From sequence record ON568341.1: a DNA stretch of 64,000 bases; one strand, given 5' to 3'. The notes under the pieces were generated by a model. That model was given only the letters and a program-made list of their open reading frames with translations, did no database searches and was not told the origin of the DNA. Shown here piece after piece: positions 11,164 to 51,201 of the stretch (position 1 is its first letter; every line of letters begins with the position of its first letter). The position numbers were made by a program, and so were the translations under genes. Origin of the DNA: Escherichia phage UE-S1.

Positions 11164-11231
11164 AAATAATTATAATAACAGGATGATTATGTTGTTCTTC
11201 CTTTGTTATTAACTATATCGGAAATATAACT

Positions 11232-11492
11232 ATGACAAACATCCAGAATTTGACGTCTATTATTTTTTATGCTACAGTGGTGATGTATACTATTGTACTT
11301 ATTTTAACAGTTTTTATTTACAAAGATTACAAAAAAGGCTTTATTAATAGCTCAACAATGAAGTTCAATTCTAAATTTGAAGCAATTATATTTTATGTTT
11401 TGACAACATCATATTTGTTGTGTATAATGTTATTAGGGTCATTGATTTATATTTTATATACAACATTATTTGCAATTGGAGCTATTTTATGA
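11232..11492 (+). CDS. small membrane protein
   Basis: Strongly hydrophobic segments; stop overlaps next start (ATGA). Confidence 0.45.
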   Translation: MTNIQNLTSIIFYATVVMYTIVLILTVFIYKDYKKGFINSSTMKFNSKFEAIIFYVLTTSYLLCIMLLGSLIYILYTTLFAIGAIL

Positions 11493-13605: not shown

Positions 13606-13614
13606 GAGTTTAAC

Positions 13615-13935
13615 ATGTCTTACTCAATGTTTTTGGATGATATCCGTGATGCAAATCTATATTATCCAAACCAAGATATGGTGGTATGTCGTGACTTTAA
13701 AAGTGCATGTGAATATGTTATTGAAAATGGAATTCCAGCATTTGTATCATTTGACCATGACTTGGGTGATGTGAGCGAAGACGAAAAGACTGGATATTCT
13801 TTTGCTAAGTTTCTTATTGATTATATGTTTGATAATAATATTAAAGAACCGTTTGAGTACTTTGTTCACAGTAGTAATCCTGTTGGTAAAATTAATATTG
13901 AAACATACTTAAACAATGGGTTTAACGCATTATGA
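13615..13935 (+). CDS. small REC/CheY-like-fold protein (hypothetical)
   Basis: Motifs FLDDIRD, SFDHDLGD, HSSNPVG. Confidence 0.4.
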   Translation: MSYSMFLDDIRDANLYYPNQDMVVCRDFKSACEYVIENGIPAFVSFDHDLGDVSEDEKTGYSFAKFLIDYMFDNNIKEPFEYFVHSSNPVGKINIETYLNNGFNAL

Positions 13936-14234
13936 TTCAAACACACATCAAAAGTCTTATTTGTACTATTCTGTTGGGCACGGGAGTGTTTTTGTTCGGA
14001 CAATATCACGAGAATACTAAGCGTACCAACATTCACTACAATACCGCAGAAGTTGTTAGTTTAGGGCAATGTAGTGAGTCAAAATGTTCGTTTATGTACA
14101 AAACCAGCAATGGTGAAGTACGTAATGGACTATCAAGAGAACCAGTTTCAATTGGTCAACTTGTTTACCAGGAGTGCTGGGAAGAAAAGGTTCGAGGTTC
14201 CCGTTGCTATGTTGAATACGAACCAAATATGTAA
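13932..14234 (+). CDS. hypothetical protein, N-terminal TM helix
   Basis: ORF in array, ATGA overlap with upstream stop. Confidence 0.45.
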   Translation: MIQTHIKSLICTILLGTGVFLFGQYHENTKRTNIHYNTAEVVSLGQCSESKCSFMYKTSNGEVRNGLSREPVSIGQLVYQECWEEKVRGSRCYVEYEPNM

Positions 14235-14294
14235 TAATCCGAGTCAATAACATTAGTCGAGTACAAGGATGTACTCATAACTCAAGGATGTTTT

Positions 14295-15734
14295 ATGAAA
14301 AAATATACAATTGACACAAACGTACTTCTATCTGACCCTAATGCATCTATTGCGTTTGATGGTGCTGCAATCATTCTACCATTTACTGTTCTAGAAGAAT
14401 TGGATTCAATTAAGAGTCGTAGTGTGGATGTTTCACGAGATGCTCGCGTTGCTATTCGTAACATTGAAGCAATTATTGCAAATGCATCTCATGATGAAAT
14501 TAGTAGTTCTGGTGTTAATATTGCTGATGTTCATACCAATATGAATCCTGACAGCAAATTGTTTGTTATTACAAACGAAGAAGCTGAAGCACTAATTCGT
14601 ACTAAAGGTTCAAACGACAAAGTTCAAACCCTTCTCAAAAGCACTGTACCTGATGATAAAATTATTCTGGTAGCTTTAGCAACCGAATCAGTACTGGTAA
14701 CTCGTGATATCAACATGCGTATCAAAGCACTAAGTTATGGTGTCGAGGTACAAGACTATCGTCATGATATTGTTATTGGTGATAGTGATTTGATTCACAT
14801 TGGTCAACATCATATGGAAATTAATTTTTGGGATGTATATAGCAATTTAACAAATACAAATATTAAAACTGAACAAATCGGTCGTCGATTGTATCATTAC
14901 ATCCCTAAAAGCTTGATTGAGCATTTGCTTCCACAAAATCTATGTATTGGTGATTATCTATATGATGATGCTGATGTATTATTTGTATACGAAGGTCAAT
15001 CAGCCATTGAGGAAGATGATGGTACACTAACACCAGAAGATATTTTGGTATTCCAAGATATTGGTCAATCAGTAGCGTTGCGTACTAAAGTATGGGATAT
15101 TAAAGCAAAGAATATTCAGCAAGCACTTGCCATCAACAGTATTCTCGATCCTGATGTACATCTAACAGTACTACTAGGTTCGGCTGGAACTGGCAAAACA
15201 TTAGTGACGATTGCTACTGCACTAGAGTTAGTACTGGAAAAACGCAAATATGACCGTGTTGTGTTCTCAAAACCACAAGATTCACAATGGGCTGAAATTG
15301 GTTTCTTACCAGGTTCCGAAATGGAAAAAATGCTACCACATTGTGGCCCTGCACTGGATGCATTAGAATTTTTACACAAAGATGATGCCTCACCACAAGG
15401 TAGTATCGAAGAGATTCTTAAACGTAACGTGATGCAATTTAAAGCACTAAACTTTGTGCGTGGACGCTCATTCACTAATACGATTCTTGTAGTTGATGAA
15501 TTCCAAAACATTACACCTGCACAAGCAAAAACTATCTTGACACGAGCAGGATTAAACTGTAAAGTAGTGATTATGGGAAACTTAGCACAGATTGATAGCA
15601 AATTTATCAGTCCAGTAAACAGTGGTTTGACATATGTAACTGAAAAATTCAAAGATTGGAGTGGTTGCCGTATCATTGAATTAGAAGGTGTTGTTCGTTC
15701 ACCACTTGCTGAATTTGCTGAAGAAAATATGTAA
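14295..15734 (+). CDS. phoH: PIN-domain PhoH-like ATPase
   Basis: N-terminal PIN motif (IDTNVLL..PFTVLEELD); Walker A GSAGTGKT in C-terminal PhoH domain. Confidence 0.8.
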   Translation: MKKYTIDTNVLLSDPNASIAFDGAAIILPFTVLEELDSIKSRSVDVSRDARVAIRNIEAIIANASHDEISSSGVNIADVHTNMNPDSKLFVITNEEAEALIRTKGSNDKVQTLLKSTVPDDKIILVALATESVLVTRDINMRIKALSYGVEVQDYRHDIVIGDSDLIHIGQHHMEINFWDVYSNLTNTNIKTEQIGRRLYHYIPKSLIEHLLPQNLCIGDYLYDDADVLFVYEGQSAIEEDDGTLTPEDILVFQDIGQSVALRTKVWDIKAKNIQQALAINSILDPDVHLTVLLGSAGTGKTLVTIATALELVLEKRKYDRVVFSKPQDSQWAEIGFLPGSEMEKMLPHCGPALDALEFLHKDDASPQGSIEEILKRNVMQFKALNFVRGRSFTNTILVVDEFQNITPAQAKTILTRAGLNCKVVIMGNLAQIDSKFISPVNSGLTYVTEKFKDWSGCRIIELEGVVRSPLAEFAEENM

Positions 15735-15802
15735 TATAGTATGGGACGTACTGTCCCATACATGATATAATGTTGATATCATAATACAAAAGGAGATATA
15801 AA

Positions 15803-15991
15803 ATGGCTAAACAACCTAAGAAAAAAGAACCAGTAGCTAAAGTTAAAAAAGAAAAAGTTATTCAATCCAAAGAACAACGTCTGTACGAACAACGTAAGAG
15901 TGAAACACTATCTGGACTACAAGCTCTACGTAAACAAGGTATTCTAACTCGTGCACAATATCGTGAACTAGTATCTATGAAAGGCTTTTGA
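15803..15991 (+). CDS. small basic protein
   Basis: Lys-rich N-terminus; AAGGAG RBS. Confidence 0.5.
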   Translation: MAKQPKKKEPVAKVKKEKVIQSKEQRLYEQRKSETLSGLQALRKQGILTRAQYRELVSMKGF

Positions 15992-16009
15992 TTCATTTGA
16001 AGCAATATT

Positions 16010-16076
16010 ATGGAGTTCTTAATAAATACTTTTATAAGAATAATAATACTTTTTATTAAATTAAAAAGAACTCCAT
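16010..16076. repeat. 11-bp inverted repeat flanking a 45-nt AT-rich spacer
   Basis: ATGGAGTTCTT ... AAGAACTCCAT; spacer has repeated TACTTTT(T)AT. Confidence 0.5.
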
Positions 16077-16094
16077 GTGTTATTTCAGTTTTTT

Positions 16095-16122
16095 ATCCCT
16101 GTCAATTGGCAGGGATTTTTTC
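16095..16122 (+). terminator. intrinsic terminator
   Basis: ATCCCTG / CAGGGAT stem then T5. Confidence 0.7.
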
Positions 16123-16217
16123 TATCTCTATCTTGACAAAAGGTTTAAAACATGAGAACATACATTAAAGGTAGAATGACATTCCATTAGGTTATTTTTA
16201 ACTTAAAGGAGATATAT

Positions 16218-16775
16218 ATGTTTTTTGACCAAACATTTACGTTGTATCACGATTCTGGTAAAGTTGAGATTATTGATAATCTGCTACTGTACATTTCTGA
16301 GCATGAAGGGATAGACCGTTTTCATAGTAAGATGAAATTCGATTTAGCTGAATTCAACAAAAAGAATCGTGAAACTTTTTGGAAGAACCGATTCTATTAT
16401 GAAATGTTCCCAGAAAGGTTTGTTGGTTATTATCTTTGTACTGAGAAAGGTTTATTAGTATCTCCAGATTTACTTATGGGTGAATACATGGTTCTCTATA
16501 ATGAGTACTGGAAAAATAAACGCAACGCTCGTGACATTGAATGGAGACACAAGCGTTCTTATATGTACAAACACAACCACTCCCGATACAAACGTCCTAA
16601 AACTCAACAAGAGCGTCGTATGGCGTGTGCGGTACTGAAGGATGAGGGAGAACCTGATATACGTGGAAGACGTAAGATGCGTTCACTACCATCGTATTGG
16701 GACGATACCAGAACAAGACACAGTACTGGCTGGAAATACAGTACTAAGCGTAAAAAACAATACAAAGGGAGCTAA
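16218..16775 (+). CDS. hypothetical protein with basic C-terminus
   Basis: AAGGAG RBS; terminator hairpin overlaps the stop codon. Confidence 0.5.
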   Translation: MFFDQTFTLYHDSGKVEIIDNLLLYISEHEGIDRFHSKMKFDLAEFNKKNRETFWKNRFYYEMFPERFVGYYLCTEKGLLVSPDLLMGEYMVLYNEYWKNKRNARDIEWRHKRSYMYKHNHSRYKRPKTQQERRMACAVLKDEGEPDIRGRRKMRSLPSYWDDTRTRHSTGWKYSTKRKKQYKGS

Positions 16776-16790
16776 TGCTCCCTATTTTAT
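16766..16790 (+). terminator. intrinsic terminator
   Basis: AGGGAGC / GCTCCCT stem overlapping the stop codon. Confidence 0.6.
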
Positions 16791-16802
16791 AGGTTAAACT
16801 TT

Positions 16803-17972
16803 ATGAGCAAAATTAATGTTGATGTAGTTATTGGTTATATTGAAATTGAACCGTGTAGTATTGATACAATGATTGACACTCTTAATAAGTATCGTTTAGA
16901 GTACAGGGGACATATTAGTATTTCGCCCGACGGTGGTTACGGTGGATTCCATGGATACAATGTAATTTGGACCAGAGAAGAAACTGACGAAGAATATAAT
17001 ACACGAATTGAAGCTGAATCTAAAAGACGTGAAGAAATTGATCGTCAAGAAATGAAACACTTAATGAACAAGAAAATCATTAAGTTCCGAAGAGAAAGAA
17101 AAACTTCTAACATACATCAAGGATTACATGTAATGAAAAATGTAACTCAAGAAAAGATTCTGTACCTTGCAAAGTACAATGGTGGTTTCAATATCATTAG
17201 CCGTGAGTATCGTGGTAATTTGGCTAAGTTGATTGACAGCTTGTTAGAATTCGATTTCATTAAATGGGAAACTAATGAACTTTGGTATGAATATGCTGGT
17301 CAGAAATGGGAAAGTGATTATGATAATGCAACACATACCTATACTATCACCAAAGCAGGTGAAGTTCGTCTATTGATTTATCGTCTAGCATATGCTTATA
17401 AGAATCATAAAGATACTGATAAGCACCAACGTAGGATTGATGAATTACAGCAAGCACTTCAACAATATGATTTAGATATTAATAATTTCAAAGATTGTTG
17501 TTCTAAGAATGAACTTAAAGCAATTAATGATTTCAATAGTAAGACCACAAATGTTGAATTAACTGATTCTGTTGACTTAGAACTTTCACCATACAATACC
17601 AATCCTACTTGGGGAAGAACTCTTACTAATATCAATGATATTGATTTCAGCCAACCAGCACTGAATAATATGTTCCAAATGAGTTCAATGCTGGGTGCTA
17701 AAGGTTTTGATGCGTCAAGAACTGATGATTATGTTCTTCGTAAAATAAATGAAGAACTTGGTGAAATGACACTTGAAATGAACATCCGTGATGGGTTATC
17801 ATATAAAGAAGCAGGTAAAGATGGTGTCAAAGGTGAAGCTGTAGATCTTTGCATTTGTGCACTTGACATGTTCGCTTTGCAATGCGATAATATGAGTCCA
17901 GAAGAGATGGAACGTGAGTTCCTTACTTACATGAATGTTAAACTAGCCAAATGGCGTAAATCAATTCAATAG
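16803..17972 (+). CDS. hypothetical protein with C-terminal MazG-like domain
   Basis: C-terminal INEELGEMTLEM ... GEAVDLCICALDMFAL resembles MazG EExGE / ExxD motifs. Confidence 0.45.
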   Translation: MSKINVDVVIGYIEIEPCSIDTMIDTLNKYRLEYRGHISISPDGGYGGFHGYNVIWTREETDEEYNTRIEAESKRREEIDRQEMKHLMNKKIIKFRRERKTSNIHQGLHVMKNVTQEKILYLAKYNGGFNIISREYRGNLAKLIDSLLEFDFIKWETNELWYEYAGQKWESDYDNATHTYTITKAGEVRLLIYRLAYAYKNHKDTDKHQRRIDELQQALQQYDLDINNFKDCCSKNELKAINDFNSKTTNVELTDSVDLELSPYNTNPTWGRTLTNINDIDFSQPALNNMFQMSSMLGAKGFDASRTDDYVLRKINEELGEMTLEMNIRDGLSYKEAGKDGVKGEAVDLCICALDMFALQCDNMSPEEMEREFLTYMNVKLAKWRKSIQ

Positions 17973-19752: not shown

Positions 19753-20367
19753 ATGACTACATCGGAAAAGTACTGGTGGATTTTGGGTCATCCTAAATTC
19801 ATAAACAAAGATATGGTTCCAGCTAGGATTGAGATAGAACCCCATGATGTGTGTCCAATGACAAATCGAATTGAAGATTTCAAAGCATTAAATACAAAGA
19901 CTCAATTTTGGGTAGAATTTCTTTCACCAATGTATATTGAGCAAGACGATGAATGGGTACAAGCACATGATTACCAATTAGATTGTGGTGGTGATACGTA
20001 TGAAGAGGCCATTGATGAATTATACAAAAATGTGCTAAAAACATATGGTGATTATACCCAACAAGAAGCTGACGATAAATTTAATAAGACCCATGCATTC
20101 AAATCTACTCAATCAATTTTTAATCCCACTAAAACTGTTTGGGAGGAACGACATAGTTGGAGTTCATGTGTAATCGATGAAGAAACCAAAGAAACAATTA
20201 TCGATGACATAAAAAATGTAAAAAATACAATAGAAGCCTTGCGTGAATTCATAAAGTCTTGTACAATAGAACAACAGAAAGAGGCAAAGATACATTTGGA
20301 GAGTGAAGAATGTAAACTTTGGGTTCTAGAGAAATCGATTGAAAAGGGTATAGACTTAGACATATGA
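19753..20367 (+). CDS. hypothetical protein
   Basis: Track ORF; start set at MTTSEK Met after GGAG. Confidence 0.45.
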   Translation: MTTSEKYWWILGHPKFINKDMVPARIEIEPHDVCPMTNRIEDFKALNTKTQFWVEFLSPMYIEQDDEWVQAHDYQLDCGGDTYEEAIDELYKNVLKTYGDYTQQEADDKFNKTHAFKSTQSIFNPTKTVWEERHSWSSCVIDEETKETIIDDIKNVKNTIEALREFIKSCTIEQQKEAKIHLESEECKLWVLEKSIEKGIDLDI

Positions 20368-20732
20368 ATAGTAAATTGGCGAAACTAATCGAAGATTTAC
20401 GCCAGATGCCGCCTATTGAACAAGTAGGAAATTACAAACGGTATCGTGTTATTGCTCGTGCACTTGATAAAAAAGGTCGAGTACTGGCAACTCGTACCAA
20501 TTCTTATACACAGACTCACCCAGTACAGAAGGGTTTCGCCATTCGTGCTGGGCGACCGCAAGGTGAGTTTCTTCATGCTGAAATTTCATGCTTACTGGCT
20601 GCTCGTGCTGATGTTCATACTTTACTGATTGCACGGATAAGTAAAGATGGAATTCCTGTTCCAGCCAAGCCTTGTGAGATTTGTACGTTGGCAATTATGG
20701 AATATGGGGTCAAAGAAATTATTCACACATGA
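20364..20732 (+). CDS. small cytidine-deaminase-fold zinc protein
   Basis: FLHAEISCLLAA and KPCEICTLA = H-A-E / P-C-x-x-C zinc-deaminase signature; second CDA-fold gene in window. Confidence 0.5.
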   Translation: MNSKLAKLIEDLRQMPPIEQVGNYKRYRVIARALDKKGRVLATRTNSYTQTHPVQKGFAIRAGRPQGEFLHAEISCLLAARADVHTLLIARISKDGIPVPAKPCEICTLAIMEYGVKEIIHT

Positions 20733-25593: not shown

Positions 25594-28293
25594 ATGATGT
25601 CAAAGAAAATATATGGTGGATTAGATGTCACACATAATGTGACAGTTAATGGAAAAAGAACAATACAAGGTATTAACAAACAAGTGTTTGACGAAAATGG
25701 TAATATGGTGTTGGATACATATTCAAAAAATGAAATGAATGATATCATTGGTATGTTACCAATTTCACATTATGGTTCCATGAACTATCTACCTGCTGGG
25801 GTCGGTGGGGATTTCAATGGTGCATCAGAAAATCAGGCATATCGCAGGAATAAGGTATTATTGGAAAATGATGGAACACTCGTTCTTTTGCGTAGTGGTA
25901 CAAACGGTAGTGTTGAAGGTTTATATTATTCTTATTTGTCTAATGCATTAGCAGTTACTGATATGAGTCGTACAATTAACACAAGTCGTCAATACAAACC
26001 AGGATTCTTCGGTCCAAATCGTGTTGCACTTGGTTTATTTAACACTGATCAAAATATTATAATGGGGAGATATAAAGATATTTCAAACAACACAATTGGT
26101 ACATTCATTTCTATTACTAATGGTACACTTAATGATACATTACACACAGGTTTTTTTGTAAATCAAACTGATATATCACCTGAAGGTGGTGTTGAATATG
26201 CTATGATGGCAGAAGACGGTTCAATATATGTTTTTAATGTAATTAATGAAAATAATAAATTTGAAATAGCCATTGTTAAAGTTGTATTTAATGTGGATAA
26301 TGGTTCTTACACAGCAACCCGCATCACAGGGTGGACTACAAAAACATTTTATAATACTACTTATTCTGGGCAAAATAATATTGTGATAACTAATGCAATG
26401 ACGTCAACTAATATTGCGGATAAGCCTTATGTATTTGTTCCTCCGAATTTGTATGGTATGGGGATTTATATGACATCTATTGATTTATATGTTGCACAAC
26501 AACCAGGAACACAAAATTTTCGTTTCAGGATGAATGGTGACGCTTATTTCGCCATGCCAACATATAGTTCGCGTCCACAACACAATTATAGTTTCACGTT
26601 CGATATGAACTCAAAGCAATGTACATTAGATGCAGGTAACGATATTGGCTCCTTCCAAGCACCGTTGGTTATAACAAATACAGGTTCTGACTTAGTTGCA
26701 TCTGGTAATGTGTTGAATTTAGACCCACTATATGACCACAATGGATATAGAAACATTTATAGTTCATATTTTTATTTAAATTCTGGTGACGTGTTTTGTA
26801 CTGCATGTCCAAACTTAGCAGAGCCACTCGCTATGCAAAAAGCAAAGTTTCCTGTGCAAATAGTATATAACATGTTAAATGTTCGTGCTGTTATATCATC
26901 AAACTTCATAGGTGGTATCGTCCGACCATCATTTGGTTCAGCGGTTGGTTCATATATTAATGGCGTTGAACTACTTCCAGATAACAGTACTAAACAATAT
27001 TCACGAGCATCTGGTTCAGGTGGTTTTAGTCCGTCATATGCAGTTCATAAAAGTACTCCGAATTTTACATTTCAATCGTTATCATTGGGAACAATTCAAG
27101 GTTATGAACCCACCACTGAGCGTAAAAATGTAAGTGAAAATAACAACAATAGAATTTTCATTAGTACTGTGTCTGGGTCAACAGTTACAACTAATGGTGG
27201 TATTTTTATGGTCGGACAACGTTATTCACAATCACTGTCTTTTGATAAAAACTTAAATGGTACAGGTAGTATTAGTGTTTCGCAATCAGTTCTTGATGGG
27301 TTCAGAGACTCTGAATATGCTAAAGTTTTAAGTGATTGGAATTTATCTCCGCAAGCGGGTAAAGATATGACATTGTTTGTACCGCAACAAGCGGATATTC
27401 CAGCATTTGTCATGCTCAGTACAATAACTAATGATTTTAAAAACTACATTAGAATTGCTGAAGTTAATGTAAACACCAGAGTAGGTGAAATCAAATCGAT
27501 AACATTCAAGCGTTTAGTTCTTGAAAATAGATATGGTGATAGTTTCACACCGAATGTTGGCGGTTATATTGCACCATCATCTGTTGGTTTAACAATTTAT
27601 GATGGTGGTTCTTTTTATTTCATTGGCGGTTCAGATCCATTAACACATCCAACAATTGGTAATACAGCAACACACATATTTCGTGCATACGTAAACAAAT
27701 CATCTGCACAATTTGAGAGTTTTATTATTGATGGTATCCATGCGTACTATAATCAAGGCCGTCAATTCACTGCATTACCTGATATTGGATTTGGATATTT
27801 TGATACAATAGACTATGATAACAAAATGATTTTCCGCAAATGTGGAACTACTATTGAAGAATATAATAACTGGAAAGAACAAGGTAATCCAATCAACGTT
27901 GTTTCACAAGATGTTGCACAAGGATTTGTTGTTTATTTTACAGAAGAAACTCCAGTTATTCTTTCTGGTAAATCATTTACCTTACCAGTGTCAAATATTG
28001 ATTTAAGAACAATAAAGCCAAACCCAGCCAATACAACATTTCATGTATATGTTAAGTTAAAACAAGGATTAGTAACTTATCATATAACTACCGATGTTAT
28101 TTCAGAAACTGGGACAATTGCATATAATATATTGTGGATAGGAACAATTAGAACTAACGATATTCAAATTGTATCAATTGATATACAAAAACGTTCACGA
28201 TTGGATATTTTTGGTGCTTCACTTGAAGCGGCAGGGGTTTCGTTCCCAGTCAGCTACGGTCTACCATCACAAACAGGAACCATAAACTGGTAA
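25594..28293 (+). CDS. tail fibre protein (paralogue A, 899 aa)
   Basis: Large Ser/Thr/Asn/Gly-rich protein; paralogous to 28911-31643; conserved C-terminal module ending TGTINW; TATAAATA late-promoter-like box upstream. Confidence 0.65.
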   Translation: MMSKKIYGGLDVTHNVTVNGKRTIQGINKQVFDENGNMVLDTYSKNEMNDIIGMLPISHYGSMNYLPAGVGGDFNGASENQAYRRNKVLLENDGTLVLLRSGTNGSVEGLYYSYLSNALAVTDMSRTINTSRQYKPGFFGPNRVALGLFNTDQNIIMGRYKDISNNTIGTFISITNGTLNDTLHTGFFVNQTDISPEGGVEYAMMAEDGSIYVFNVINENNKFEIAIVKVVFNVDNGSYTATRITGWTTKTFYNTTYSGQNNIVITNAMTSTNIADKPYVFVPPNLYGMGIYMTSIDLYVAQQPGTQNFRFRMNGDAYFAMPTYSSRPQHNYSFTFDMNSKQCTLDAGNDIGSFQAPLVITNTGSDLVASGNVLNLDPLYDHNGYRNIYSSYFYLNSGDVFCTACPNLAEPLAMQKAKFPVQIVYNMLNVRAVISSNFIGGIVRPSFGSAVGSYINGVELLPDNSTKQYSRASGSGGFSPSYAVHKSTPNFTFQSLSLGTIQGYEPTTERKNVSENNNNRIFISTVSGSTVTTNGGIFMVGQRYSQSLSFDKNLNGTGSISVSQSVLDGFRDSEYAKVLSDWNLSPQAGKDMTLFVPQQADIPAFVMLSTITNDFKNYIRIAEVNVNTRVGEIKSITFKRLVLENRYGDSFTPNVGGYIAPSSVGLTIYDGGSFYFIGGSDPLTHPTIGNTATHIFRAYVNKSSAQFESFIIDGIHAYYNQGRQFTALPDIGFGYFDTIDYDNKMIFRKCGTTIEEYNNWKEQGNPINVVSQDVAQGFVVYFTEETPVILSGKSFTLPVSNIDLRTIKPNPANTTFHVYVKLKQGLVTYHITTDVISETGTIAYNILWIGTIRTNDIQIVSIDIQKRSRLDIFGASLEAAGVSFPVSYGLPSQTGTINW

Positions 28294-28304
28294 AGGATTA
28301 TACA

Positions 28305-28892
28305 ATGGCATATAAAATAAGAGCAGATCTTAAAGCAATGGAACAGGTTACAGTACAAGGTAAAAGAACTGGACTTGGTGTGTTAGGTAATAATATGACG
28401 TATTATCCAACAAATTCAGATGGGGAATGTACTTTCCCATCTATTACAAAAGATGATATTGATTTTATTGTAAATGGTTTTCCCATTACACAATATGGTG
28501 AATTATATGATAATGAAAATCTAAATATTACATCATCTGGTAACAAACTTACATTTAATAGAGAGATACCATCATTTATTGGTGGTTATCTATACAAGTT
28601 TCCGGCAGTTTCTGTTTTTGCATCACCAGTTACATCGGGAACACAGACTCAATATGTATATGCAACATTGGTTCTAGGTGAACCAATTTATAAAGTATCT
28701 CCGATACAAATGCAAGAATCTGAAATTATAATGTTTATTGGTACTATTATTGTTGGAACAAGTGGTATTACAAATATAAACATCGATAAGGTGTCAAGAT
28801 TTAGTACGTTTAGACCTAACGTTACACAAAAAGGTTCGTCATTCCCAGTTAGTTCTGGAAAACCATCCGAAACCGGTTCGATTAGTTGGTAA
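28305..28892 (+). CDS. small tail-fibre-associated protein sharing the fibre C-terminal module
   Basis: 195 aa; C-terminus (ITNINIDKVSRFSTFRP..SGKPSETGSISW) homologous to the C-termini of both flanking fibres. Confidence 0.55.
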   Translation: MAYKIRADLKAMEQVTVQGKRTGLGVLGNNMTYYPTNSDGECTFPSITKDDIDFIVNGFPITQYGELYDNENLNITSSGNKLTFNREIPSFIGGYLYKFPAVSVFASPVTSGTQTQYVYATLVLGEPIYKVSPIQMQESEIIMFIGTIIVGTSGITNINIDKVSRFSTFRPNVTQKGSSFPVSSGKPSETGSISW

Positions 28893-28910: not shown

Positions 28911-31643
28911 ATGTCATCAAAACGAATTATAGGAAGTGCTGAGATCCTTGGAAACTTAGCGATTGGTGGAAAATATGCAATGCGTACATTTAACGGAACT
29001 TCCCCCGATGCAAACACTGGAATAGTTAATTATCCAATATATAATAGGTCGGAAGTACAACGTATTTTAGACATGCTACCAATATCACGTATAGGAGAAA
29101 TGGATTATCTTCCATTAAACGTGAATGGCTCATATGAAGGGGCAACATCAAATTCAGATATATATCGCGTTCAACCGACTATCATTGAAGATGATGGAAC
29201 TGGTGTGGTATTACGTGCAGGTACTAATGGTAGTGAAAAAGGTTTCTATTATTCTTTCATACGAGATTTAAGAAATGTTTCTTCTTTAACTCAAGATATG
29301 GTCATTTCAACCACAAGTAAATATAAACCATCCATTCTCAGTGCTGGGGAAAGTGTTACTAGATTTATTGGTTCTAATGGGTATGAGCTTTTAGTTTCAT
29401 ATACATCGAACTTAAATTATATTTTTACGTTAACAAATGGTACATTCAATGAAACATCCCATATCCATGCTAAATTGGTTGGTACACAATTTAATACGGA
29501 TAAACCATTATATGCACATATAGTTGGGGCAAATATATTCATTTGGTGTAAAGATACAACAGTAACTAATGGTGGCATGGCATATACATTATACACCGTA
29601 TCAAAAAGTGATGTGATTAATGGCACGATGACATCTTTTGCTAAAGTTACAGGATTTTCTGGACAAACAGTTAGAAATACAAGCTATAGTTCATCAAACA
29701 ACATTCGTGTATTTGATAGTTATTTTTCCACAAATTCTGACTCGGACTCTCTATTTGTTATTAACAGTCCCGTGAATAGTGTAGAGTATATTGATTATAA
29801 TGACTATAATATCCAAGCGAATGCCAGTTCTGATAACTCTAGAATACGAGTTACTTTATATATAACACCACGTTTCAGTACACCATTGATTGTATCTCCT
29901 GTATTCGCAACAGGTATAAGTTTTGTTTATACTATTAGCTCAAAATCTATGTCATTGGACGGTAGTGCCAGAGCACCAGTTACAGTATCGTATACTAATA
30001 ATAAGTTTGTGGTTTCTAACCAGTTTGAAATTTCAATGAGTAATTTTACTGGTTCAAAGAACAGTTTATCTTCATTAGGTGATTGTGGCTCAATATGTCA
30101 AACAACAGATGGTCTAGTTTTCACTTCAAAATCCAGATGGGTTTCTGATGAGACATATGGCTTACAACTATATAAAGTTCAAGGTACACCATACGATAGT
30201 TGGGTTGCTAGTTCCCGTAAAGCAAGTGATTTAATAAACGTAAATGTTAAACCAACATACGGTTCGGCTGTAGGTGAAAACTTACTTGGTGTTAGATTCA
30301 TTGATACCAGAAAGATACTTCTTGCATGTTCAAGTACTAGCAATGGTGTAACTTATGGTTATGATAGTACTGTGTATTCTCAAATTGGGGAAAATCCAAC
30401 ACATACATATAATAGTGTTACTACTGGAAAATCTATAGAAGGGTTTGCACCTGAATCAGAACGTAAATATCTAGGTAATAGTTATGATTACAGTGCTATG
30501 ATTTCGTTAATCGCAGAAGACGGTACAGTAAGGTCTTATGGTTCATCATTTATTGAAGGAATTACCAAAGATGCAACTGGGTTACTAGATCCAGTTACAA
30601 TGACATTCTCTGGAAAATATACAATATCTGATGCTACTTTAATGGAGTTAAAACAATCTATCATTACTAGCTCTAAAATTTCTGGTACTAGTACTTCTAG
30701 AATATGCTTTTATTATGTACCTGACACTACATTCTCAAGATCTATGGCAGTCGTTTGTACATACAGCCCAACTAATAACCAAGGGTATGCTATTTTTGCT
30801 GAAGTTGATGTTGTACTTAGTGGTTCTGAAATCACAAGTGCATCAGTATATTCAACTAGATACGAAGTTGAAGATAATGTTTCTGGTATACAAAGCAATG
30901 CAATATTAAAGCGTTGCACGGGAATGACAGTTGCGAAATACACAGGGTTCAATTATCTTGGAATTGATACAATTCACCAGTTCACTGTACCTGGCGATGT
31001 TCATCAAAAAATGATGATAGCTAAAGTTAAAAATGGAGATATTAGTAGTAATCGTTATTTCACAACTTATCATGTTAATGCTAATAATAGCTTTGCTTTC
31101 CAACATGGTGCAATTCCCAATGTTGGGTTTGGGTATTATAACTTCAACATTTCAGATTTACAGACAAAAGCAGTTTTTTCTGTATTTGGTACAACTGAAG
31201 CACAAATGGATGGTTTGATTGCGGGGACTGGAGCAGTGCTGAATAATTATGTCATTGTGTCACAGGACGTTGCACAGGGTTTTAACGTATACTTCACTCG
31301 TGATGTACCAGTGTTTTTGGGTGGAATGTTTGACAGACTACCAGTTCAAAGTATAGATTTGAAAACTATTAAAACTAATCCTGCTAACAGTACTTTTTAT
31401 ATTTACATTCAAATGGATCGCAACACTGGAAAAGCGGCATACGTTATTAGTACTACCCTTCTCGATGAGACATTGACAAATGTTTATATTGGTAATATCA
31501 TCACTGGAAGTACAAGTATCACGTCGATTGATACTGAAAAGGTAACTCGCTTCTTGACCTACCGACCTAGTACCACAAAACGTGGGTCCGCAATACCTGC
31601 CAGTACTGGTGTACCATCTGGGCCTGGCTCCCGTTGGAAATAA
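28911..31643 (+). CDS. tail fibre protein (paralogue B, 910 aa)
   Basis: Shares N-terminal (MLPIS.IGEM.YLP) and C-terminal (SQDVAQGF..TIK.NPAN) blocks with 25594-28293. Confidence 0.65.
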   Translation: MSSKRIIGSAEILGNLAIGGKYAMRTFNGTSPDANTGIVNYPIYNRSEVQRILDMLPISRIGEMDYLPLNVNGSYEGATSNSDIYRVQPTIIEDDGTGVVLRAGTNGSEKGFYYSFIRDLRNVSSLTQDMVISTTSKYKPSILSAGESVTRFIGSNGYELLVSYTSNLNYIFTLTNGTFNETSHIHAKLVGTQFNTDKPLYAHIVGANIFIWCKDTTVTNGGMAYTLYTVSKSDVINGTMTSFAKVTGFSGQTVRNTSYSSSNNIRVFDSYFSTNSDSDSLFVINSPVNSVEYIDYNDYNIQANASSDNSRIRVTLYITPRFSTPLIVSPVFATGISFVYTISSKSMSLDGSARAPVTVSYTNNKFVVSNQFEISMSNFTGSKNSLSSLGDCGSICQTTDGLVFTSKSRWVSDETYGLQLYKVQGTPYDSWVASSRKASDLINVNVKPTYGSAVGENLLGVRFIDTRKILLACSSTSNGVTYGYDSTVYSQIGENPTHTYNSVTTGKSIEGFAPESERKYLGNSYDYSAMISLIAEDGTVRSYGSSFIEGITKDATGLLDPVTMTFSGKYTISDATLMELKQSIITSSKISGTSTSRICFYYVPDTTFSRSMAVVCTYSPTNNQGYAIFAEVDVVLSGSEITSASVYSTRYEVEDNVSGIQSNAILKRCTGMTVAKYTGFNYLGIDTIHQFTVPGDVHQKMMIAKVKNGDISSNRYFTTYHVNANNSFAFQHGAIPNVGFGYYNFNISDLQTKAVFSVFGTTEAQMDGLIAGTGAVLNNYVIVSQDVAQGFNVYFTRDVPVFLGGMFDRLPVQSIDLKTIKTNPANSTFYIYIQMDRNTGKAAYVISTTLLDETLTNVYIGNIITGSTSITSIDTEKVTRFLTYRPSTTKRGSAIPASTGVPSGPGSRWK

Positions 31644-33314: not shown

Positions 33315-33716
33315 ATGACTACAGTTGATGATATCTATAGTACTATACGAAATATGAGTACAGATAGAAAAGTATTTGGTGATAAAGAAAAATCTAAGTG
33401 TTATGGTATTGATTCTTTTGATATAATTTCGTATGAGTACAACACGAATGGAAATAGTTCACTGAATATCGTCTGCCCTCGTGACCCAGAAAATAATTTT
33501 ATGTATGTTGAAATTAATAATGATGGGATGTTTTTTACAAAAGTTTTCAAAGGTGGTATTAATTACGAACCTATTGAATGTATGAATGAAGAAACTTTCT
33601 TTCAAGAAGATACAATTATCAATTTAGGTTTTAGTTTTGCGGATTATAAAACATTAGAACATGACTTTAATCGTTATTATAACGGTTTCTTAAAGGAGTT
33701 AACAATTTATCTATGA
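33315..33716 (+). CDS. hypothetical protein
   Basis: ORF in array. Confidence 0.45.
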   Translation: MTTVDDIYSTIRNMSTDRKVFGDKEKSKCYGIDSFDIISYEYNTNGNSSLNIVCPRDPENNFMYVEINNDGMFFTKVFKGGINYEPIECMNEETFFQEDTIINLGFSFADYKTLEHDFNRYYNGFLKELTIYL

Positions 33717-34945
33717 ATAACCAATATGTTGAACAAACAATAGTGAAACACTTGGCTGGGTCACAAGCCTACGGAACCAGTACGCCTGAAAGTGATACTG
33801 ATTATCGTGGTATTTTTCTTGCTAATAAAGAATTTATTCTTACGCCATTCTATAAGGTTAAAGAAGTAGCTGATAAAAATGAAGAAGATACCAAATTCTA
33901 TGAGTTAAATCAGTATTTAAAATTATACACTGAAGCCAACCCTAATATTCTGGAATCACTATGGGTTGAACCAGAACACATTGTAGAAAGTACTGAGATT
34001 TATGACTATCTTCGTTCATTTAACCAAAAACTTCTTAGTTCTAAGATTGCATTTTCATATACTGGATATGCATATAATCAGATTAAGCGTATGACAAATC
34101 ATCACGGTTGGATGGATAAAGAGCGAATTGCTGAAAAACGTTTAAATGAGATTTTAGAAGAACACCCTGTCGATGAGGTTCTTGCGTGGATGTATGATTC
34201 ATTCCCACAATATCTTGTTGAACGTTTAGATACATCTAACTTACATCCATTTAATACTAAAAAGATTGATTTTGAAAAATATATGCGTGATACGTCATTG
34301 CAGTTAGTTTCGAAAAATCCATTAAAGCAATATCATTTTGTAAGATTAGTGCATAACTACACTACTGACAAAATTCTAGATCGTGATTTCAATTTATTGA
34401 ATTTTAATAATGGCTATGAACTAATTCATTACGGAGAAAACATTTTTGCGATTATTAAAAATCCAAATGAAAGCACTATCAACGGTGATGGATCATTGCG
34501 TTATTTTTCTAAAGAGCGTAGTACTGAAGAATTGAAAACTAAACCAGAACTAATTGTCAAATTTAACGAAAAAGAATATCAGGAAAATAGTGAGAATAGA
34601 AAAAGTTATCATAAATGGAAAGAAAATCGTAATGCCAAACGTGCTATTTTAGAATCACAACACGGATACGATTGTAAACATGCTATGCACACAATCCGAC
34701 TTTTGAATAGTGCAGAAGAAGCATTACAAAGTGGAATTATTCAAGTTAAACGACCAGATGCACAAATGTTGATGGATATTCGTAATGGTAAATGGAAGTA
34801 TGAAGAAGTCTTAGAATATTTCGATGATAAAGTACAATACATTCGTGATGTTCTATATAAGAAATCAGTACTTCCCAAAAAACCTAACATCAAGTTAGCA
34901 TCGAAAATTATAATTGATATTCGAGAAATGCAATGGTATAAGTAA
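33713..34945 (+). CDS. pol-beta-superfamily nucleotidyltransferase
   Basis: N-terminal GSQAYGTSTPESDTDYRG matches the NTase-fold signature G[SG]..(9-13)..D.D; 410 aa with uncharacterised C-terminal region. Confidence 0.55.
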   Translation: MNNQYVEQTIVKHLAGSQAYGTSTPESDTDYRGIFLANKEFILTPFYKVKEVADKNEEDTKFYELNQYLKLYTEANPNILESLWVEPEHIVESTEIYDYLRSFNQKLLSSKIAFSYTGYAYNQIKRMTNHHGWMDKERIAEKRLNEILEEHPVDEVLAWMYDSFPQYLVERLDTSNLHPFNTKKIDFEKYMRDTSLQLVSKNPLKQYHFVRLVHNYTTDKILDRDFNLLNFNNGYELIHYGENIFAIIKNPNESTINGDGSLRYFSKERSTEELKTKPELIVKFNEKEYQENSENRKSYHKWKENRNAKRAILESQHGYDCKHAMHTIRLLNSAEEALQSGIIQVKRPDAQMLMDIRNGKWKYEEVLEYFDDKVQYIRDVLYKKSVLPKKPNIKLASKIIIDIREMQWYK

Positions 34946-45617: not shown

Positions 45618-45950
45618 ATGCTAAATCTAAATATTCAAGGCAACGTTGATATCACTCCAGCAATCCAAGATGCTATTTATAATGAAGCAAAAAGTCTGGA
45701 TAAGTACCGTACTTCTTCAGTACTAGACATTGGTGTTCATGTTAAGAAAGAGCATAAAACTCAATATGCTGTAACTTTAACTGCTGGTAGTAAATCAGTA
45801 ACTGCTGATGATGCTGATTTGTATAAAGCAATTGTTGAATCTTTTGATAAGATGGAAACTGTATTCAGTAAAGACAAAAGCATTAAATTACACCGCCGAA
45901 ACCATCCAGAACACCCCGTTCTTGATGATTTGACAGAAAACGAAGAGTAA
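45618..45950 (+). CDS. hypothetical protein
   Basis: AAGGAAGG RBS; terminator follows. Confidence 0.5.
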   Translation: MLNLNIQGNVDITPAIQDAIYNEAKSLDKYRTSSVLDIGVHVKKEHKTQYAVTLTAGSKSVTADDADLYKAIVESFDKMETVFSKDKSIKLHRRNHPEHPVLDDLTENEE

Positions 45951-46412: not shown

Positions 46413-46598
46413 ATGGAATATACCATATGTGTAATTGTATGTATCGTAGCCTTACTTGCAGGAGTTGGTGTGATGATTTACTGTGATGCGGAACCCAGTA
46501 CAGAAACAGGAACAACTATTGAACTTAAGCCTGGTGTTAAGGTAAATGATTCATATTGTTACGATCCACATAGTAATAAGTATGTGATTTGTCTATGA
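46413..46598 (+). CDS. small membrane protein
   Basis: N-terminal TM helix ICVIVCIVALLAGVGVMIY. Confidence 0.4.
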   Translation: MEYTICVIVCIVALLAGVGVMIYCDAEPSTETGTTIELKPGVKVNDSYCYDPHSNKYVICL

Positions 46599-47005
46599 AA
46601 AAGTTTGATATTAAACCTATGATCGATGCTATCGAAATTAAATTAAAAAATACTAAAAAGACAGATAGTACATGTTTGTTCTTTAGCTTAGATAAAATGT
46701 ATTATGAAACACACGTGTCAAGTTATGATAGAACAGGAAATCTCTTCATCCGTACTTATAACATATTTTATAGTGACGATGTTTTTATGATAGATATAAA
46801 TCTGGATGAAAGTATAGTGTTGATGTATATTGAGGATGTTCAATCAACAGAACAACGAAACGGGACTCTTCCTATTGCTGCTACAGAGGAAGAGTTTATG
46901 CAATATCAGTTCATTGATGATACCTTTGGCATTGACTTTGACACATATCAGAGTATAATGAGGGTATACGAACTTTATGAGGATTATGTGATTGGACGTT
47001 ACTAA
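46589..47005 (+). CDS. hypothetical protein, paralogue 1 of 2
   Basis: C-terminal QYQFIDDTFGIDFDTYQSIMRVYELY paralogous to next ORF. Confidence 0.5.
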   Translation: MSMKKFDIKPMIDAIEIKLKNTKKTDSTCLFFSLDKMYYETHVSSYDRTGNLFIRTYNIFYSDDVFMIDINLDESIVLMYIEDVQSTEQRNGTLPIAATEEEFMQYQFIDDTFGIDFDTYQSIMRVYELYEDYVIGRY

Positions 47006-47414
47006 AATTTCAAAATTTAATGAAACTTTAAAGTACTTTGCTGAACACGAAATCAGTACTGAAAGACGCGGTTTAATTTCATACAATCCACATCGTGTTC
47101 TGTACACTAATAATTTTCAGGGTACAGTTCGTATTAAATTTCGTAATGCACTCGAAGACAATGATGAATTGTTAATTTTACTACGAAAAAGTAAGATTGA
47201 ATTAACATACGTAACTCACGATATTGAAAGTGAGTTGATGTGGCACACGCTGTCAAAAAAAGAAGGTTCATTGCCAGTTGTTGATAATGGCCCTGAAACA
47301 CTTGATCAGTACATGTTCATTGATGATACATTTGGCATTGACTATTCTGCGTATCAATGTATACTAGCTATATACGAAAAATATTACGACCGTCTACGTG
47401 ACAGATTAATTTAA
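46992..47414 (+). CDS. hypothetical protein, paralogue 2 of 2
   Basis: C-terminal DQYMFIDDTFGIDYSAYQCILAIYEKY. Confidence 0.5.
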   Translation: MDVTKISKFNETLKYFAEHEISTERRGLISYNPHRVLYTNNFQGTVRIKFRNALEDNDELLILLRKSKIELTYVTHDIESELMWHTLSKKEGSLPVVDNGPETLDQYMFIDDTFGIDYSAYQCILAIYEKYYDRLRDRLI

Positions 47415-47425
47415 TTGGAGGCATT

Positions 47426-47548
47426 GTGATTACAGTATTAGAAGAGGATTGGGGTGTTTCAGAGCAAGGAACTGACGAATATGAATACCCAGAATATAAG
47501 ACTAAAGGCTTTTGGGAACGTTTTCGTGATTGGTTGATGGGGGAATAA
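47426..47548 (+). CDS. candidate small ORF (40 aa)
   Basis: Not on track; GTG start 5 nt after GGAGG; stop directly precedes CCA-enzyme ATG. Confidence 0.3.
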   Translation: MITVLEEDWGVSEQGTDEYEYPEYKTKGFWERFRDWLMGE

Positions 47549-47549
47549 T

Positions 47550-48662
47550 ATGAAAAAGTATTTGGTTGGCGGTTACGTCCGTGACCGTTTAATGGGTCTT
47601 CGTGCAAAAGACAAAGATTATGTCATTGTTGGTGCATCCGAATCTGATCTTAAGTACTTGCAAAGTATTGGCTATAAGCAAGTAGGTAAGGATTTCCCAG
47701 TATATCTAAGTCCAGAAGGTAATGAACACGCATTAGCCCGTACTGAGCGTAAAACTGGTACTGGATATGGTGGATTTGAAGTGGATACAAAAGGCGTAAC
47801 ACTAGAACAAGATTTGTATCGCCGTGACCTTACAATAAACAGTATCGCGTATGATCCAGTACTGCAAATTCACATCGACCCATACGGTGGAAAAGCTGAT
47901 ATCAAGAATAAAGTTCTACGCCATGTATCCGAACACTTCAAAGAAGATCCATTGCGTGTATTACGCCTGTGTCGCTTTGCAACGCGTTATTCTGATTTCT
48001 CTATACACGAGACTACTGAAGCACTTGTCATCGATATGGTAGCGTCTGGTGAGCTAAATCATCTTGTTCCAGACCGTGTTTTTGTGGAATTTGAAAAAGC
48101 ACTGTCGGAAGAAAAGCCAGCTAAGTTCCTTAAGACTCTAAGTCATTTTGGTTATTACGAAAATGTGTTTAAAACACCATTGACCAAAAAGAATTTGGAT
48201 CTCATTGATTATATTTCAGATAACTGTACTGATGTATATAAACCATATTTTCTGTGGTCTATTCTTCTAGAAAATGAAGAAGTAAATAATGACTCAGAAA
48301 TTAACGGTGCTATTAAAGTTCCTGTTAAATATGTCAAATTTAGTAATTACATCAAACTTTTCCGTGATGATATCAAAACATTCCGTAAAAAGACCCCAAA
48401 TGAAATGGGACAGTTATTACTGGATATGAATATTAAAAATAATGGAGGTGAAGAATTCCTTTATAAAGTGTTGGAATACTTCATTTTGCGAAAAGAAATT
48501 GATTTAGAACTTGAAGATCTAATTATTAAAGTTTATGATCGTTATACTGATGTTGAATTACCTGATATTCAGCAAATGGTTAAAGATGGTGAACTTGAAA
48601 CGTCAGAAATTCGTGATTTTGTTTGTGAACTCCGATGTGAAGCAATCAAGAAACTATTCTAA
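47550..48662 (+). CDS. tRNA nucleotidyltransferase (CCA-adding enzyme)
   Basis: N-terminal GGYVRDRLMG and KDKDYV match the Pol-beta head domain of CCA-adding enzymes / poly(A) polymerases. Confidence 0.7.
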   Translation: MKKYLVGGYVRDRLMGLRAKDKDYVIVGASESDLKYLQSIGYKQVGKDFPVYLSPEGNEHALARTERKTGTGYGGFEVDTKGVTLEQDLYRRDLTINSIAYDPVLQIHIDPYGGKADIKNKVLRHVSEHFKEDPLRVLRLCRFATRYSDFSIHETTEALVIDMVASGELNHLVPDRVFVEFEKALSEEKPAKFLKTLSHFGYYENVFKTPLTKKNLDLIDYISDNCTDVYKPYFLWSILLENEEVNNDSEINGAIKVPVKYVKFSNYIKLFRDDIKTFRKKTPNEMGQLLLDMNIKNNGGEEFLYKVLEYFILRKEIDLELEDLIIKVYDRYTDVELPDIQQMVKDGELETSEIRDFVCELRCEAIKKLF

Positions 48663-48770
48663 AAAACAGTGGGACAGAATACCAATAACTGATATAATTA
48701 TTAGTATCTGAACATCGATTGATGAAAAAGAGATAAGATATGCGTTATAGTTGTGGTATAATATTTTATC

Positions 48771-49172
48771 GTGATGGTCAGATACTTATCGGACATACAA
48801 CACGGACAGAAACATTGGGATTTACCTAAAGGGAAAGCAGAGGGTGAAGAAACATTCAAAGAAGCTGCTGTGCGTGAATGTTTTGAAGAGACAGGATACG
48901 AAATCGATGAAGATGATCTTCTGTTTCTTGGTGATGTATCCTATAGAAAGGGAAAAAGGTTGGTTCTTTTCTTTTATACTGCTAAAGACAAGCCTGTACC
49001 AGATGAATTAGTATGTAAAAGTACATATACTAATAGATATGGTAAGAGTCATCCAGAATTGGATAAGTTCATGTACATTGATGTGCGAGAATGTCAAAAG
49101 TATTTGACTGAACGAATGTGTAACAGTATAATAAAAGCGGTTAAAGCTTTTCAAAGAAATAAAAGGAAATAA
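48771..49172 (+). CDS. Nudix hydrolase (N-terminal strand encoded in a different frame; possible frameshift)
   Basis: Canonical Nudix box GKAEGEETFKEAAVRECFEETGYEI; a 29-codon ORF at 48740-48829 in another frame encodes MRYSCGIIFYRDGQILIGHTTRT, the expected Nudix N-terminal strand. Confidence 0.55.
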   Translation: MMVRYLSDIQHGQKHWDLPKGKAEGEETFKEAAVRECFEETGYEIDEDDLLFLGDVSYRKGKRLVLFFYTAKDKPVPDELVCKSTYTNRYGKSHPELDKFMYIDVRECQKYLTERMCNSIIKAVKAFQRNKRK

Positions 49173-49173
49173 T

Positions 49174-49422
49174 ATGAAAGTTAAAATTTATGGTCGCACG
49201 ACTGGTTGTAAATTTTGCGATACTGCAAAAGCTGTATGTGAGCAAAATAAATTTGACATGGAATTTGTAGATATTGTTACTGAAGGTATTGATGGTGCAA
49301 AGCTATCAGAAATTTGTGGTGAGCCAGTACGTCAGGTTCCTCAAATTTTTGTAAATGACATTTATGTACCTGGGGGTTGTACTGGATTTATTGAAGGACT
49401 TAAAGAAGGTCGTTGGAAATAA
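49174..49422 (+). CDS. nrdC: glutaredoxin/thioredoxin (NrdC-like)
   Basis: KIYGRTTGCKFCDTAK CxxC active site; overall resemblance to T4 NrdC (KVYG..C.YCDNAK .. PQ.F). Confidence 0.65.
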   Translation: MKVKIYGRTTGCKFCDTAKAVCEQNKFDMEFVDIVTEGIDGAKLSEICGEPVRQVPQIFVNDIYVPGGCTGFIEGLKEGRWK

Positions 49423-50003: not shown

Positions 50004-50480
50004 ATGATACATGAGCACCGAGGTAATCTGTTTGAATTGTTCAGTACTGTAACCGATGATGAAACTGCATTGCATATTATTGCACATGGTTGCAACGCCC
50101 AAGGTAAAATGGGTTCTGGTTTTGCAAAAGAACTAAGAAATCGTTACCCAATGGCATATGATGATTATAAAGCATATGAAAAGGAAATGGGATTTCTAAG
50201 AACTGGAAAAATTGCATATTCTTCGGTAAGTGATGATTTACTTATTGCAAACTGTATTACCCAACAATTCTACGGGAATGATGGTAAAAAATATGTAAGT
50301 TATGATGCAATTGATGATATTTTCAAAGAGATAAATTACTTATGTAATATTGAACGTAGTGTTTATGTACACTTTCCGAAAATTGGAGCCGATTTGGGTG
50401 GTGGTAACTGGAACGTTATCAAAGAAATTATTGATCACAGACTGGTCAATGCAGAAAAACACTTATATATTCTAAAATAA
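50004..50480 (+). CDS. macro-domain protein (ADP-ribose binding/processing)
   Basis: HGCNAQGKMGSGFAKEL and HFPKIGADLGGGNW resemble macro-domain Gly-rich loops. Confidence 0.6.
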   Translation: MIHEHRGNLFELFSTVTDDETALHIIAHGCNAQGKMGSGFAKELRNRYPMAYDDYKAYEKEMGFLRTGKIAYSSVSDDLLIANCITQQFYGNDGKKYVSYDAIDDIFKEINYLCNIERSVYVHFPKIGADLGGGNWNVIKEIIDHRLVNAEKHLYILK

Positions 50481-50823: not shown

Positions 50824-51201
50824 ATGGCTGTTAATGACGTTAAAGTAAAAACTATTCAAGCTATCGTAGTACTGAAAGATTCAACTCCATCTCCAAAAGA
50901 ATTGGTAATGGCTGGGATGACAATGCTTCATCAATACAATCCTGAATCACCAAATTATGTTCAAGAATACGAAGCAAAGCAGTTTAAAGAACATTGGCAG
51001 TCATGGATTAAAGATAATGAAATGGAGCAAGTTGTTTATGCTGCTGATGACATTTTCGAATTAGAACAAATTGAATATCTAGCAGGTCAACAATCTGTGC
51101 CGTTGAGTATCTTCGGTAATGGTGAAGAAGTCTTAGTTCTAGGACCATTCACTGCCGATGTAATTACACACTTACTAAGTAATTGTGAAAAAATTGGCTA
51201 A
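50824..51201 (+). CDS. hypothetical protein
   Basis: ORF in array. Confidence 0.5.
   Translation: MAVNDVKVKTIQAIVVLKDSTPSPKELVMAGMTMLHQYNPESPNYVQEYEAKQFKEHWQSWIKDNEMEQVVYAADDIFELEQIEYLAGQQSVPLSIFGNGEEVLVLGPFTADVITHLLSNCEKIG

Follow-up and report, generated by a model that had tools for sequence, protein, structure and literature searches.

The cca gene and its product

The DNA analysed here, a window of 64,000 nucleotides, is a 64-kb piece of the genome of an Asteriusvirus (121Q/PBECO4/slurp01-like) E. coli jumbo phage of ~345 kb. It carries on the plus strand a cca gene, whose product (phage Cca) is organized as follows.

47550-48662, +: cca, class II tRNA nucleotidyltransferase (CCA-adding enzyme type) without an HD domain; 370 aa, ATG start
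47559..47921, +: head (Pol-beta nucleotidyltransferase) domain; residues 4-124, Pfam PF01743
47568-47585, +: motif A, GGYVRD, in the head domain; residues 7-12
47610-47618, +: catalytic DxD (D21/D23) in the head domain, from alignment with D21/D23 of E. coli Cca
47820-47828, +: motif B, RRD, in the head domain; residues 91-93
47943..48173, +: neck region, with motif D, R139/R142 and the PolyA_pol_RNAbd match
47943-47957, +: motif D, EDPLR, in the neck; residues 132-136
47994-48173, +: PolyA_pol_RNAbd match in the neck; residues 149-208, Pfam
48174..48659, +: C-terminal helical body/tail region; residues 209-370

The assignment to the CCA-adding enzymes, made in the original prediction from the letters alone, is borne out by Pfam, by PHROG and by the motifs GGYVRD and KDKDYV. 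Pfam identified the PolyA_pol head in residues 4-124 (E 3.7e-18) and PolyA_pol_RNAbd in residues 149-208 (E 1.9e-09), and PHROG 2244, "tRNA nucleotidyltransferase", matched the protein over its full length (E 2.9e-115). KDKDYV occupies residues 20-25, where D21 and D23 align with the catalytic D21 and D23 of E. coli Cca; the D21A/D23A mutation inactivates the E. coli enzyme (PMC6468291). In alignments of 18 and of 90 homologues, GGxVRD, D23, RRD (91-93), EDPxR (132-136), R139 and R142 are invariant, and D21 is kept in at least 90% of the sequences. In class II enzymes, motif B (RRD) and motif D (EDxxR) together form the protein "template" that selects CTP and ATP.

Loss of the HD domain

Residues 1-207 of phage Cca are 52% identical to E. 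coli K-12 Cca (BLASTP). Beyond residue 207, BLASTP found no similarity to residues 208-412 of E. coli Cca, the half that contains the HD domain, and the Pfam search returned no match to PF01966 (HD) in the phage protein. In the 18-sequence alignment, the HHPE..H..HDLGK..HE block of the PF01966-bearing bacterial homologues is deleted throughout the phage clade, and phage Cca has no histidine past residue 199. E. coli Cca (b3056) is a fused CCA tRNA nucleotidyltransferase/phosphohydrolase; it has the catalytic D21/D23, RRD and EDxxR in common with the phage enzyme, which falls short of it by 42 aa and has neither the HD domain nor its H..HD..D residues.

According to Yakunin et al. (2004), the HD domain of E. 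coli Cca reportedly has phosphatase and 2',3'-cyclic phosphodiesterase activities. Phage Cca is predicted to have neither, and since the domain is absent it should extend 3'-OH ends only and not heal phosphorylated ones. The best NCBIfam model, "multifunctional CCA addition/repair protein" (NF008137), scored 271 bits against a cutoff of 451, and its match was confined to model positions 1-207 of 409; with the HD domain absent, membership in this family was rejected. Among relatives the gene is labelled variously as tRNA nucleotidyltransferase, CCA-adding enzyme, multifunctional CCA protein, phosphatase or hypothetical protein. Because the HD domain has been lost, the labels "multifunctional CCA protein" and "phosphatase" overstate the phage enzyme and need correcting.

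Predicted structure and enzyme type

An AlphaFold2 model of phage Cca, built from the 90-sequence alignment, has a pLDDT of 95 and a pTM of 0.88. Its C-terminal region is helical and predicted with high confidence, and the model aligns over its full length to canonical class II enzymes. The closest PDB structure in a Foldseek search was the CCA-adding enzyme of T. maritima, 3H38 (TM 0.72, E 3.8e-16, ~400 columns), and the tRNA complex 5HC9 aligned with a TM of 0.69, also over ~400 columns. All 46 significant PDB matches belong to class II enzymes of the CCA-adding, A-adding or poly(A) kinds, the CCA-adding ones ranking first. The head-neck-body-tail fold is thus predicted to be retained. The same four-domain fold is found in the canonical HD-less class II enzymes (T. 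maritima 3H38/5HC9, G. stearothermophilus 1MIV and the NCBIfam PRK13296/PRK13297 types), to which phage Cca aligns over ~390-400 columns with TM 0.66-0.72 at a sequence identity of only 20-24%. Unlike these enzymes, the phage protein has a head and neck that clearly belong to the gammaproteobacterial Cca lineage.

It is very unlikely that, in practice, the protein adds something other than CCA, whether as a poly(A) polymerase, as an enzyme of the A-adding or CC-adding kind, or by tailing other RNAs of the phage or its host. Such a deviation would be in keeping with the C-terminal half, which has diverged from E. coli Cca; the specificity of class II enzymes is, according to Tretbar et al., reportedly influenced by this region, and its divergence could change the substrate range of phage Cca. 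All NCBIfam equivalog cutoffs were also missed, although HD-less bacterial Cca equivalogs of ~360 aa do exist and two of them, NF009811 and NF009812, are among the matches of phage Cca. Against the 271 bits of the Cca model, the PcnB models reached only 91 and 51 bits, and poly(A) polymerase I was rejected as an assignment (TIGR01942, 91 bits, cutoff 305.65; NF008634, 51.5 bits, cutoff 702). CC-adding enzymes are said to be marked by a deletion in the flexible loop (Neuenfeldt et al. in 2008). In phage Cca this loop, residues 60-80, has only a one-residue gap relative to E. coli Cca and no deletion relative to the HD-bearing bacterial homologues, so that a deletion of the CC-adding type is absent, and the best full-length structural matches are CCA-adding enzymes. 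That the gene represents a captured bacterial cca in decay and no longer functional is hardly credible: the HD domain has been lost relative to the host-type enzyme, but the ORF is intact, with a length of 370 ± 4 aa kept even in phages with protein identity down to 48%, all catalytic residues are invariant and the predicted structure is very confident. We read the protein as a genuine enzyme of the CCA-adding type, of gammaproteobacterial ancestry, that has lost its phosphohydrolase module; the activity itself is predicted.

Gene neighborhood

The genes flanking cca, all on the same strand, are listed below.

45618..45950, +: HPF/YfiA-like (S30AE) ribosome-associated or hibernation-factor-like protein; Pfam PF02482, E 3.3e-10
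46589-47005 and 46992-47414, +: paralogous pair, function not assigned; both phrog_20693, 14-nt overlap
47426..47548, +: 40-aa ORF; a single nucleotide separates its stop codon from the cca ATG
48771..49172, +: NUDIX hydrolase, directly downstream of cca; Pfam NUDIX, E 1.6e-12
49174..49422, +: glutaredoxin-like protein; Pfam Glutaredoxin, E 1.2e-08
50004-50480, +: Macro/DarG-like protein; Pfam Macro, E 9e-4, below cutoff

The HPF-like product also matched the NCBIfam yfiA model below its cutoff (E 6e-09), and its gene lies upstream of cca in the same position in GAP32 and other relatives. The 40-aa ORF is called as a gene in three loci from relatives (L004, L005 and L007) and is annotated as phrog 34272 in SHEFM2K. 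Head-tail and tail genes follow downstream, beyond the Macro/DarG-like gene. No terminator-like site was found on the plus strand between cca and the NUDIX gene, and a promoter scan around cca returned 29 sites, a number that is uninformative next to the 27.2 ± 6.5 of shuffled sequences.

The order lysozyme, HPF-like, cca, NUDIX, glutaredoxin is common to the Klebsiella phages of Alcyoneusvirus, Cronobacter phage GAP32 and metagenomic relatives with Cca identity down to 50%; in RaK2/121Q/GAP32-like phages a gp13-like gene comes next after glutaredoxin. At a Cca identity of 40%-41% the NUDIX and glutaredoxin genes are gone, and cca is followed by YqeY and Macro genes, or directly by PTH2 and YqeY genes. 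The adjacency of cca and NUDIX was considered as a sign of functional coupling and set aside as weak, since it is confined to one syntenic clade and is lost at 40%-41% identity. The cca gene is unlinked to the tRNA cluster described below and sits within the block of HPF-like, NUDIX, glutaredoxin and Macro-like genes. This block looks like a translation-upkeep neighborhood, and the setting is as compatible with general maintenance of the translation machinery as with counter-defence.

Several further observations were made on genes of this region and elsewhere in the window. The product of 50004-50480 weakly matches the antitoxin DarG (E 2.3e-07) and is labelled "phosphatase" or "Appr-1-p processing" in relatives; it might be an anti-DarT counter-defence gene. 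In the locus of one distant relative (L017, 5122-6203), a clear PTH2 and a YqeY-domain protein directly follow cca. In the window, the product of a 125-aa ORF at 50824-51201 (+) has an orthologue in a Klebsiella phage, at 61% identity, whose own PTH2 record is weak. With no Pfam PTH2 match at E ≤ 0.05, no PDB sequence match and this orthologue as the sole support, its assignment as PTH2 was not confirmed. A second template-independent nucleotidyltransferase gene lies 12.6 kb upstream of cca (33713-34945, +) and encodes a 410-aa protein of the RlaP family (Pfam "RNA repair pathway DNA polymerase beta family", E 2.9e-16); none of the eight ORFs neighboring it is an RNA ligase or kinase. Three consecutive tail-fibre-like paralogues (25594-28293, 28305-28892 and 28911-31643, +) have conserved N- and C-terminal segments. 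From the tail-protein gene to cca, the window is ~3.2 kb longer than SHEFM2K.

tRNA genes in the window and in its relatives

The original prediction had reported that the window contains no tRNA gene, and searches with dedicated programs agree. ARAGORN found no tRNA or tmRNA in the 64 kb, and Rfam at gathering thresholds found no tRNA; when the whole window was searched at E ≤ 1 for degenerate tRNAs, Rfam gave two chance-level matches only, both to unrelated families. No clear counterpart was found for the "ORF-poor island" also mentioned in that prediction: except for the last 706 bp of the window, stretches lacking ORFs of 80 aa or more extend to 454 bp at most.

The relatives of the window do carry tRNA genes. 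Megablast of positions 47000-49200 matched 36 phage records, the best at 92.4% identity; they are jumbo myoviruses of ~320-385 kb from E. coli, Salmonella or Klebsiella, of the 121Q/PBECO4/slurp01 group, Asteriusvirus. The orthologues in RaK2/121Q/GAP32-like phages (RaK2 gp031, 121Q gp539, Sharanji WNN14700 and SHEFM2K M2K_0579) have the same length and neighborhood, and nothing substantive distinguishes the cca of the window from them. Within Asteriusvirus the DNA is 86%-92% identical, and the protein is 68% identical to that of Klebsiella phages and 60% to that of GAP32. Phage Cca is 100% identical to a database cluster present on at least 12 contigs, including a 342,045-bp ENA metagenome scaffold (scaffold_4). 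Six contigs with the identical protein show 98.2%-99.3% DNA identity to the window, none of them being identical to it. On scaffold_4, where cca lies at 107,664-108,776, a 21-kb stretch around the gene is 99.1% identical in DNA to window positions 37555-58662.

The tRNA locus of scaffold_4 was found through a homologue of a protein encoded inside the slurp01 cluster. ARAGORN predicts nine tRNAs there at 276,352-282,033, of which seven pass the Rfam gathering score; Gly-UCC(a) and Ser-GCU score below the threshold. The cluster is 168 kb from cca. The window maps to ~60-124 kb of the scaffold, which places the cluster ~152 kb past its right edge, or ~120 kb away in the other direction if the genome is circularly permuted. 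In slurp01 (348,043 bp, 92% DNA identity), seven tRNA genes lie at 13,021-17,148 and cca near 198 kb. The cluster region is present in 18 of the 18 distinct relatives listed from megablast. Seven tRNA names are annotated under the Sharanji match to the cluster, and published genomes give similar totals: seven tRNAs in Sharanji (PMC11895373), eight in JP4 (PMC12648861) and seven in ELP-22 (PMC11465974). The nearest relatives found are ~99% identical; the source genome of the window probably carries the cluster too. The content of the cluster differs among relatives, with seven tRNAs in slurp01 and nine on scaffold_4, and a NUMOD4/HNH homing-endonuclease gene lies inside the scaffold_4 cluster (10714-11238 of locus L008).

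These results support the earlier suggestion that the phage carries its tRNAs elsewhere, given the nine predicted on a 342-kb scaffold at 168 kb from cca. It had been added that a tRNA cluster nearby, outside the window, would reduce the matter to ordinary tRNA maturation; such a cluster exists, so that this outcome is reached in substance, but it is not nearby, being at least 120 kb off. The idea of a phage with a CCA enzyme and no tRNA genes was rejected on the basis of its relatives: nine tRNAs on a scaffold with the identical protein, seven in slurp01 and the cluster in 18 of 18 relatives. Since the cluster takes up 5.7 kb in a genome of 342 kb, only ~20% of all 64-kb windows would overlap it, (64+5.7)/342, and ~80% would be free of tRNAs. 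A tRNA-free window is therefore the expected outcome of sampling, and the implied oddity of a CCA enzyme without tRNAs is an artefact of window size.

CCA-less tRNA genes and the probable role of the enzyme

The predicted tRNA genes of scaffold_4 differ at their 3' ends.

Ser-UGA, Arg-UCU, Met-CAU and Asn-GUU: full CCA templated
Gly-UCC(b), Ser-GCU, Ser-ACU and Thr-UGU: a lone C, then AAA, past the discriminator
Gly-UCC(a): without any C

CCA is thus not templated in 5 of the 9 predicted genes, or in 3 of the 7 that pass Rfam. The same pattern is seen in slurp01, where 3 of 7 tRNA genes lack a templated CCA, and RaK2, with a Cca of 68% identity, has 4 such genes out of 8. In E. coli, all tRNA genes encode CCA and loss of cca has a mild repair phenotype only (PMC6468291). 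With about half of the phage tRNA genes CCA-less and none of those in E. coli, it is the phage's own tRNAs, and not the host genes, that give rise to a demand for CCA addition. Before charging, the CCA-less phage tRNAs need to be trimmed at their 3' ends and then given CCA (or CA) post-transcriptionally, as in T4, where tRNA genes that do not template CCA require trimming and CCA addition (PMC11143913). Phage Cca most likely performs the addition on these tRNAs. It would supplement host Cca, which in E. coli is limited to end repair because every tRNA gene of this host templates CCA. T4 depends on the host enzyme, whereas the Asteriusvirus group brings its own; as T4 copes with host Cca alone, CCA-less tRNA genes need not by themselves demand a phage cca. 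The RaK2 paper of 2013 had already put forward maturation of RaK2's own tRNAs as the function of gp031 (PMC3622015), and the CCA-less genes support this role without proving it. We assign a probability of roughly 75% to the reading that phage Cca is a functional class II CCA-adding enzyme, that 7-9 phage tRNAs lie in one cluster >120 kb outside the window and that the enzyme most likely completes the CCA-less ones, both its activity and its in vivo substrates being predictions.

Like any CCA-adding enzyme, phage Cca should also be able to rebuild host tRNA ends shortened by exonucleases, and incidental repair of host tRNAs is expected. A different proposal is that counter-defence is its main role, the CCA tails of host and phage tRNAs being rebuilt after immune damage to their 3' ends, such as tail cleavage of the Cas12a3 type or increased trimming by exonucleases, so that translation keeps going. 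This we regard as unlikely. It draws on the finding that Cas12a3 cuts tRNA CCA tails as an anti-phage defence, for which the authors call the means of viral resistance unknown (PMC12851939), and on the placement of jumbo-phage CCA-adding enzymes with RNA-end repair by Iyer et al. (PMC7824862). An RlaP nucleotidyltransferase of the RNA-repair type is encoded in the same window, the neighbors of cca are HPF-like, NUDIX and Macro/DarG-like genes and not tRNAs, and Fri1-like podophages have an annotated tRNA nucleotidyltransferase with zero tRNA genes (PMC5537680). However, the CCA-less tRNAs of the phage itself are a simpler reason for carrying cca, and the gene order around it, being conserved among phages of a single related clade, does not count as independent evidence for functional coupling. 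Without an HD domain the enzyme could not heal ends bearing a phosphate or 2',3'-cyclic phosphate. Ba1Cas12a3 can also take the discriminator base, as the paper describes a cleaved ACCA tail (PMC12851939), and this loss CCA addition is unable to make good. Nor can CCA addition reverse the pyrophosphorylation of the tRNA CCA end by toxSAS and CapRel (PMC9712102, PMC11559606) or remove the nucleotides with which MenT toxins extend it (PMC10435456).

A more specific version, which we hold to be distinctly improbable, is that the HD-less Cca belongs to a conserved "translation-upkeep" block (HPF-like, NUDIX, glutaredoxin and Macro-like, with PTH2/YqeY in distant relatives) selected to resist immunity directed at tRNA 3' tails, whether Cas12a3-type cleavage or induced exonucleolytic trimming. 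If true, it would answer the open question of how phages escape tail-targeting defences. Completion of the phage's own CCA-less tRNAs remains the reading we prefer; now that defences that cut tRNA tails are known, phage Cca is nevertheless an obvious and cheaply testable resistance candidate.

The presence of cca is an ordinary finding and has been described before. Dozens of deposited genomes carry an annotation for the gene, the proposal of its likely role dates from 2013 and surveys of jumbo phages list the enzyme; the phAPEC6 paper contains nothing on Cca. What is refined here is that about half of the tRNA genes of the group lack a templated CCA, which means a concrete substrate for the enzyme in cells whose own tRNA genes all template CCA, and that the loss of the HD phosphohydrolase domain allows the misleading labels to be corrected.

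The tRNA-Ser with anticodon ACU (A34), unusual for bacteria-type tRNAs, is found at 15634-15725 of locus L001 and 11301-11392 of L008; it scores 49.9 bits against the Rfam tRNA model and has no templated CCA. Inosine at position 34 of this tRNA would read the Arg codon AGA too. The Sharanji paper lists a phage "tRNA-specific adenosine deaminase" (PMC11895373). The window holds two zinc-deaminase ORFs, one at 7235-7726 (+), which is dCMP deaminase/ComEB-like (PF00383, E 1.3e-21), and one at 20364-20732 (+), of 122 aa (PF00383, E 9.8e-07; no NCBIfam match). Either of them could be the protein labelled tRNA adenosine deaminase in the relatives.
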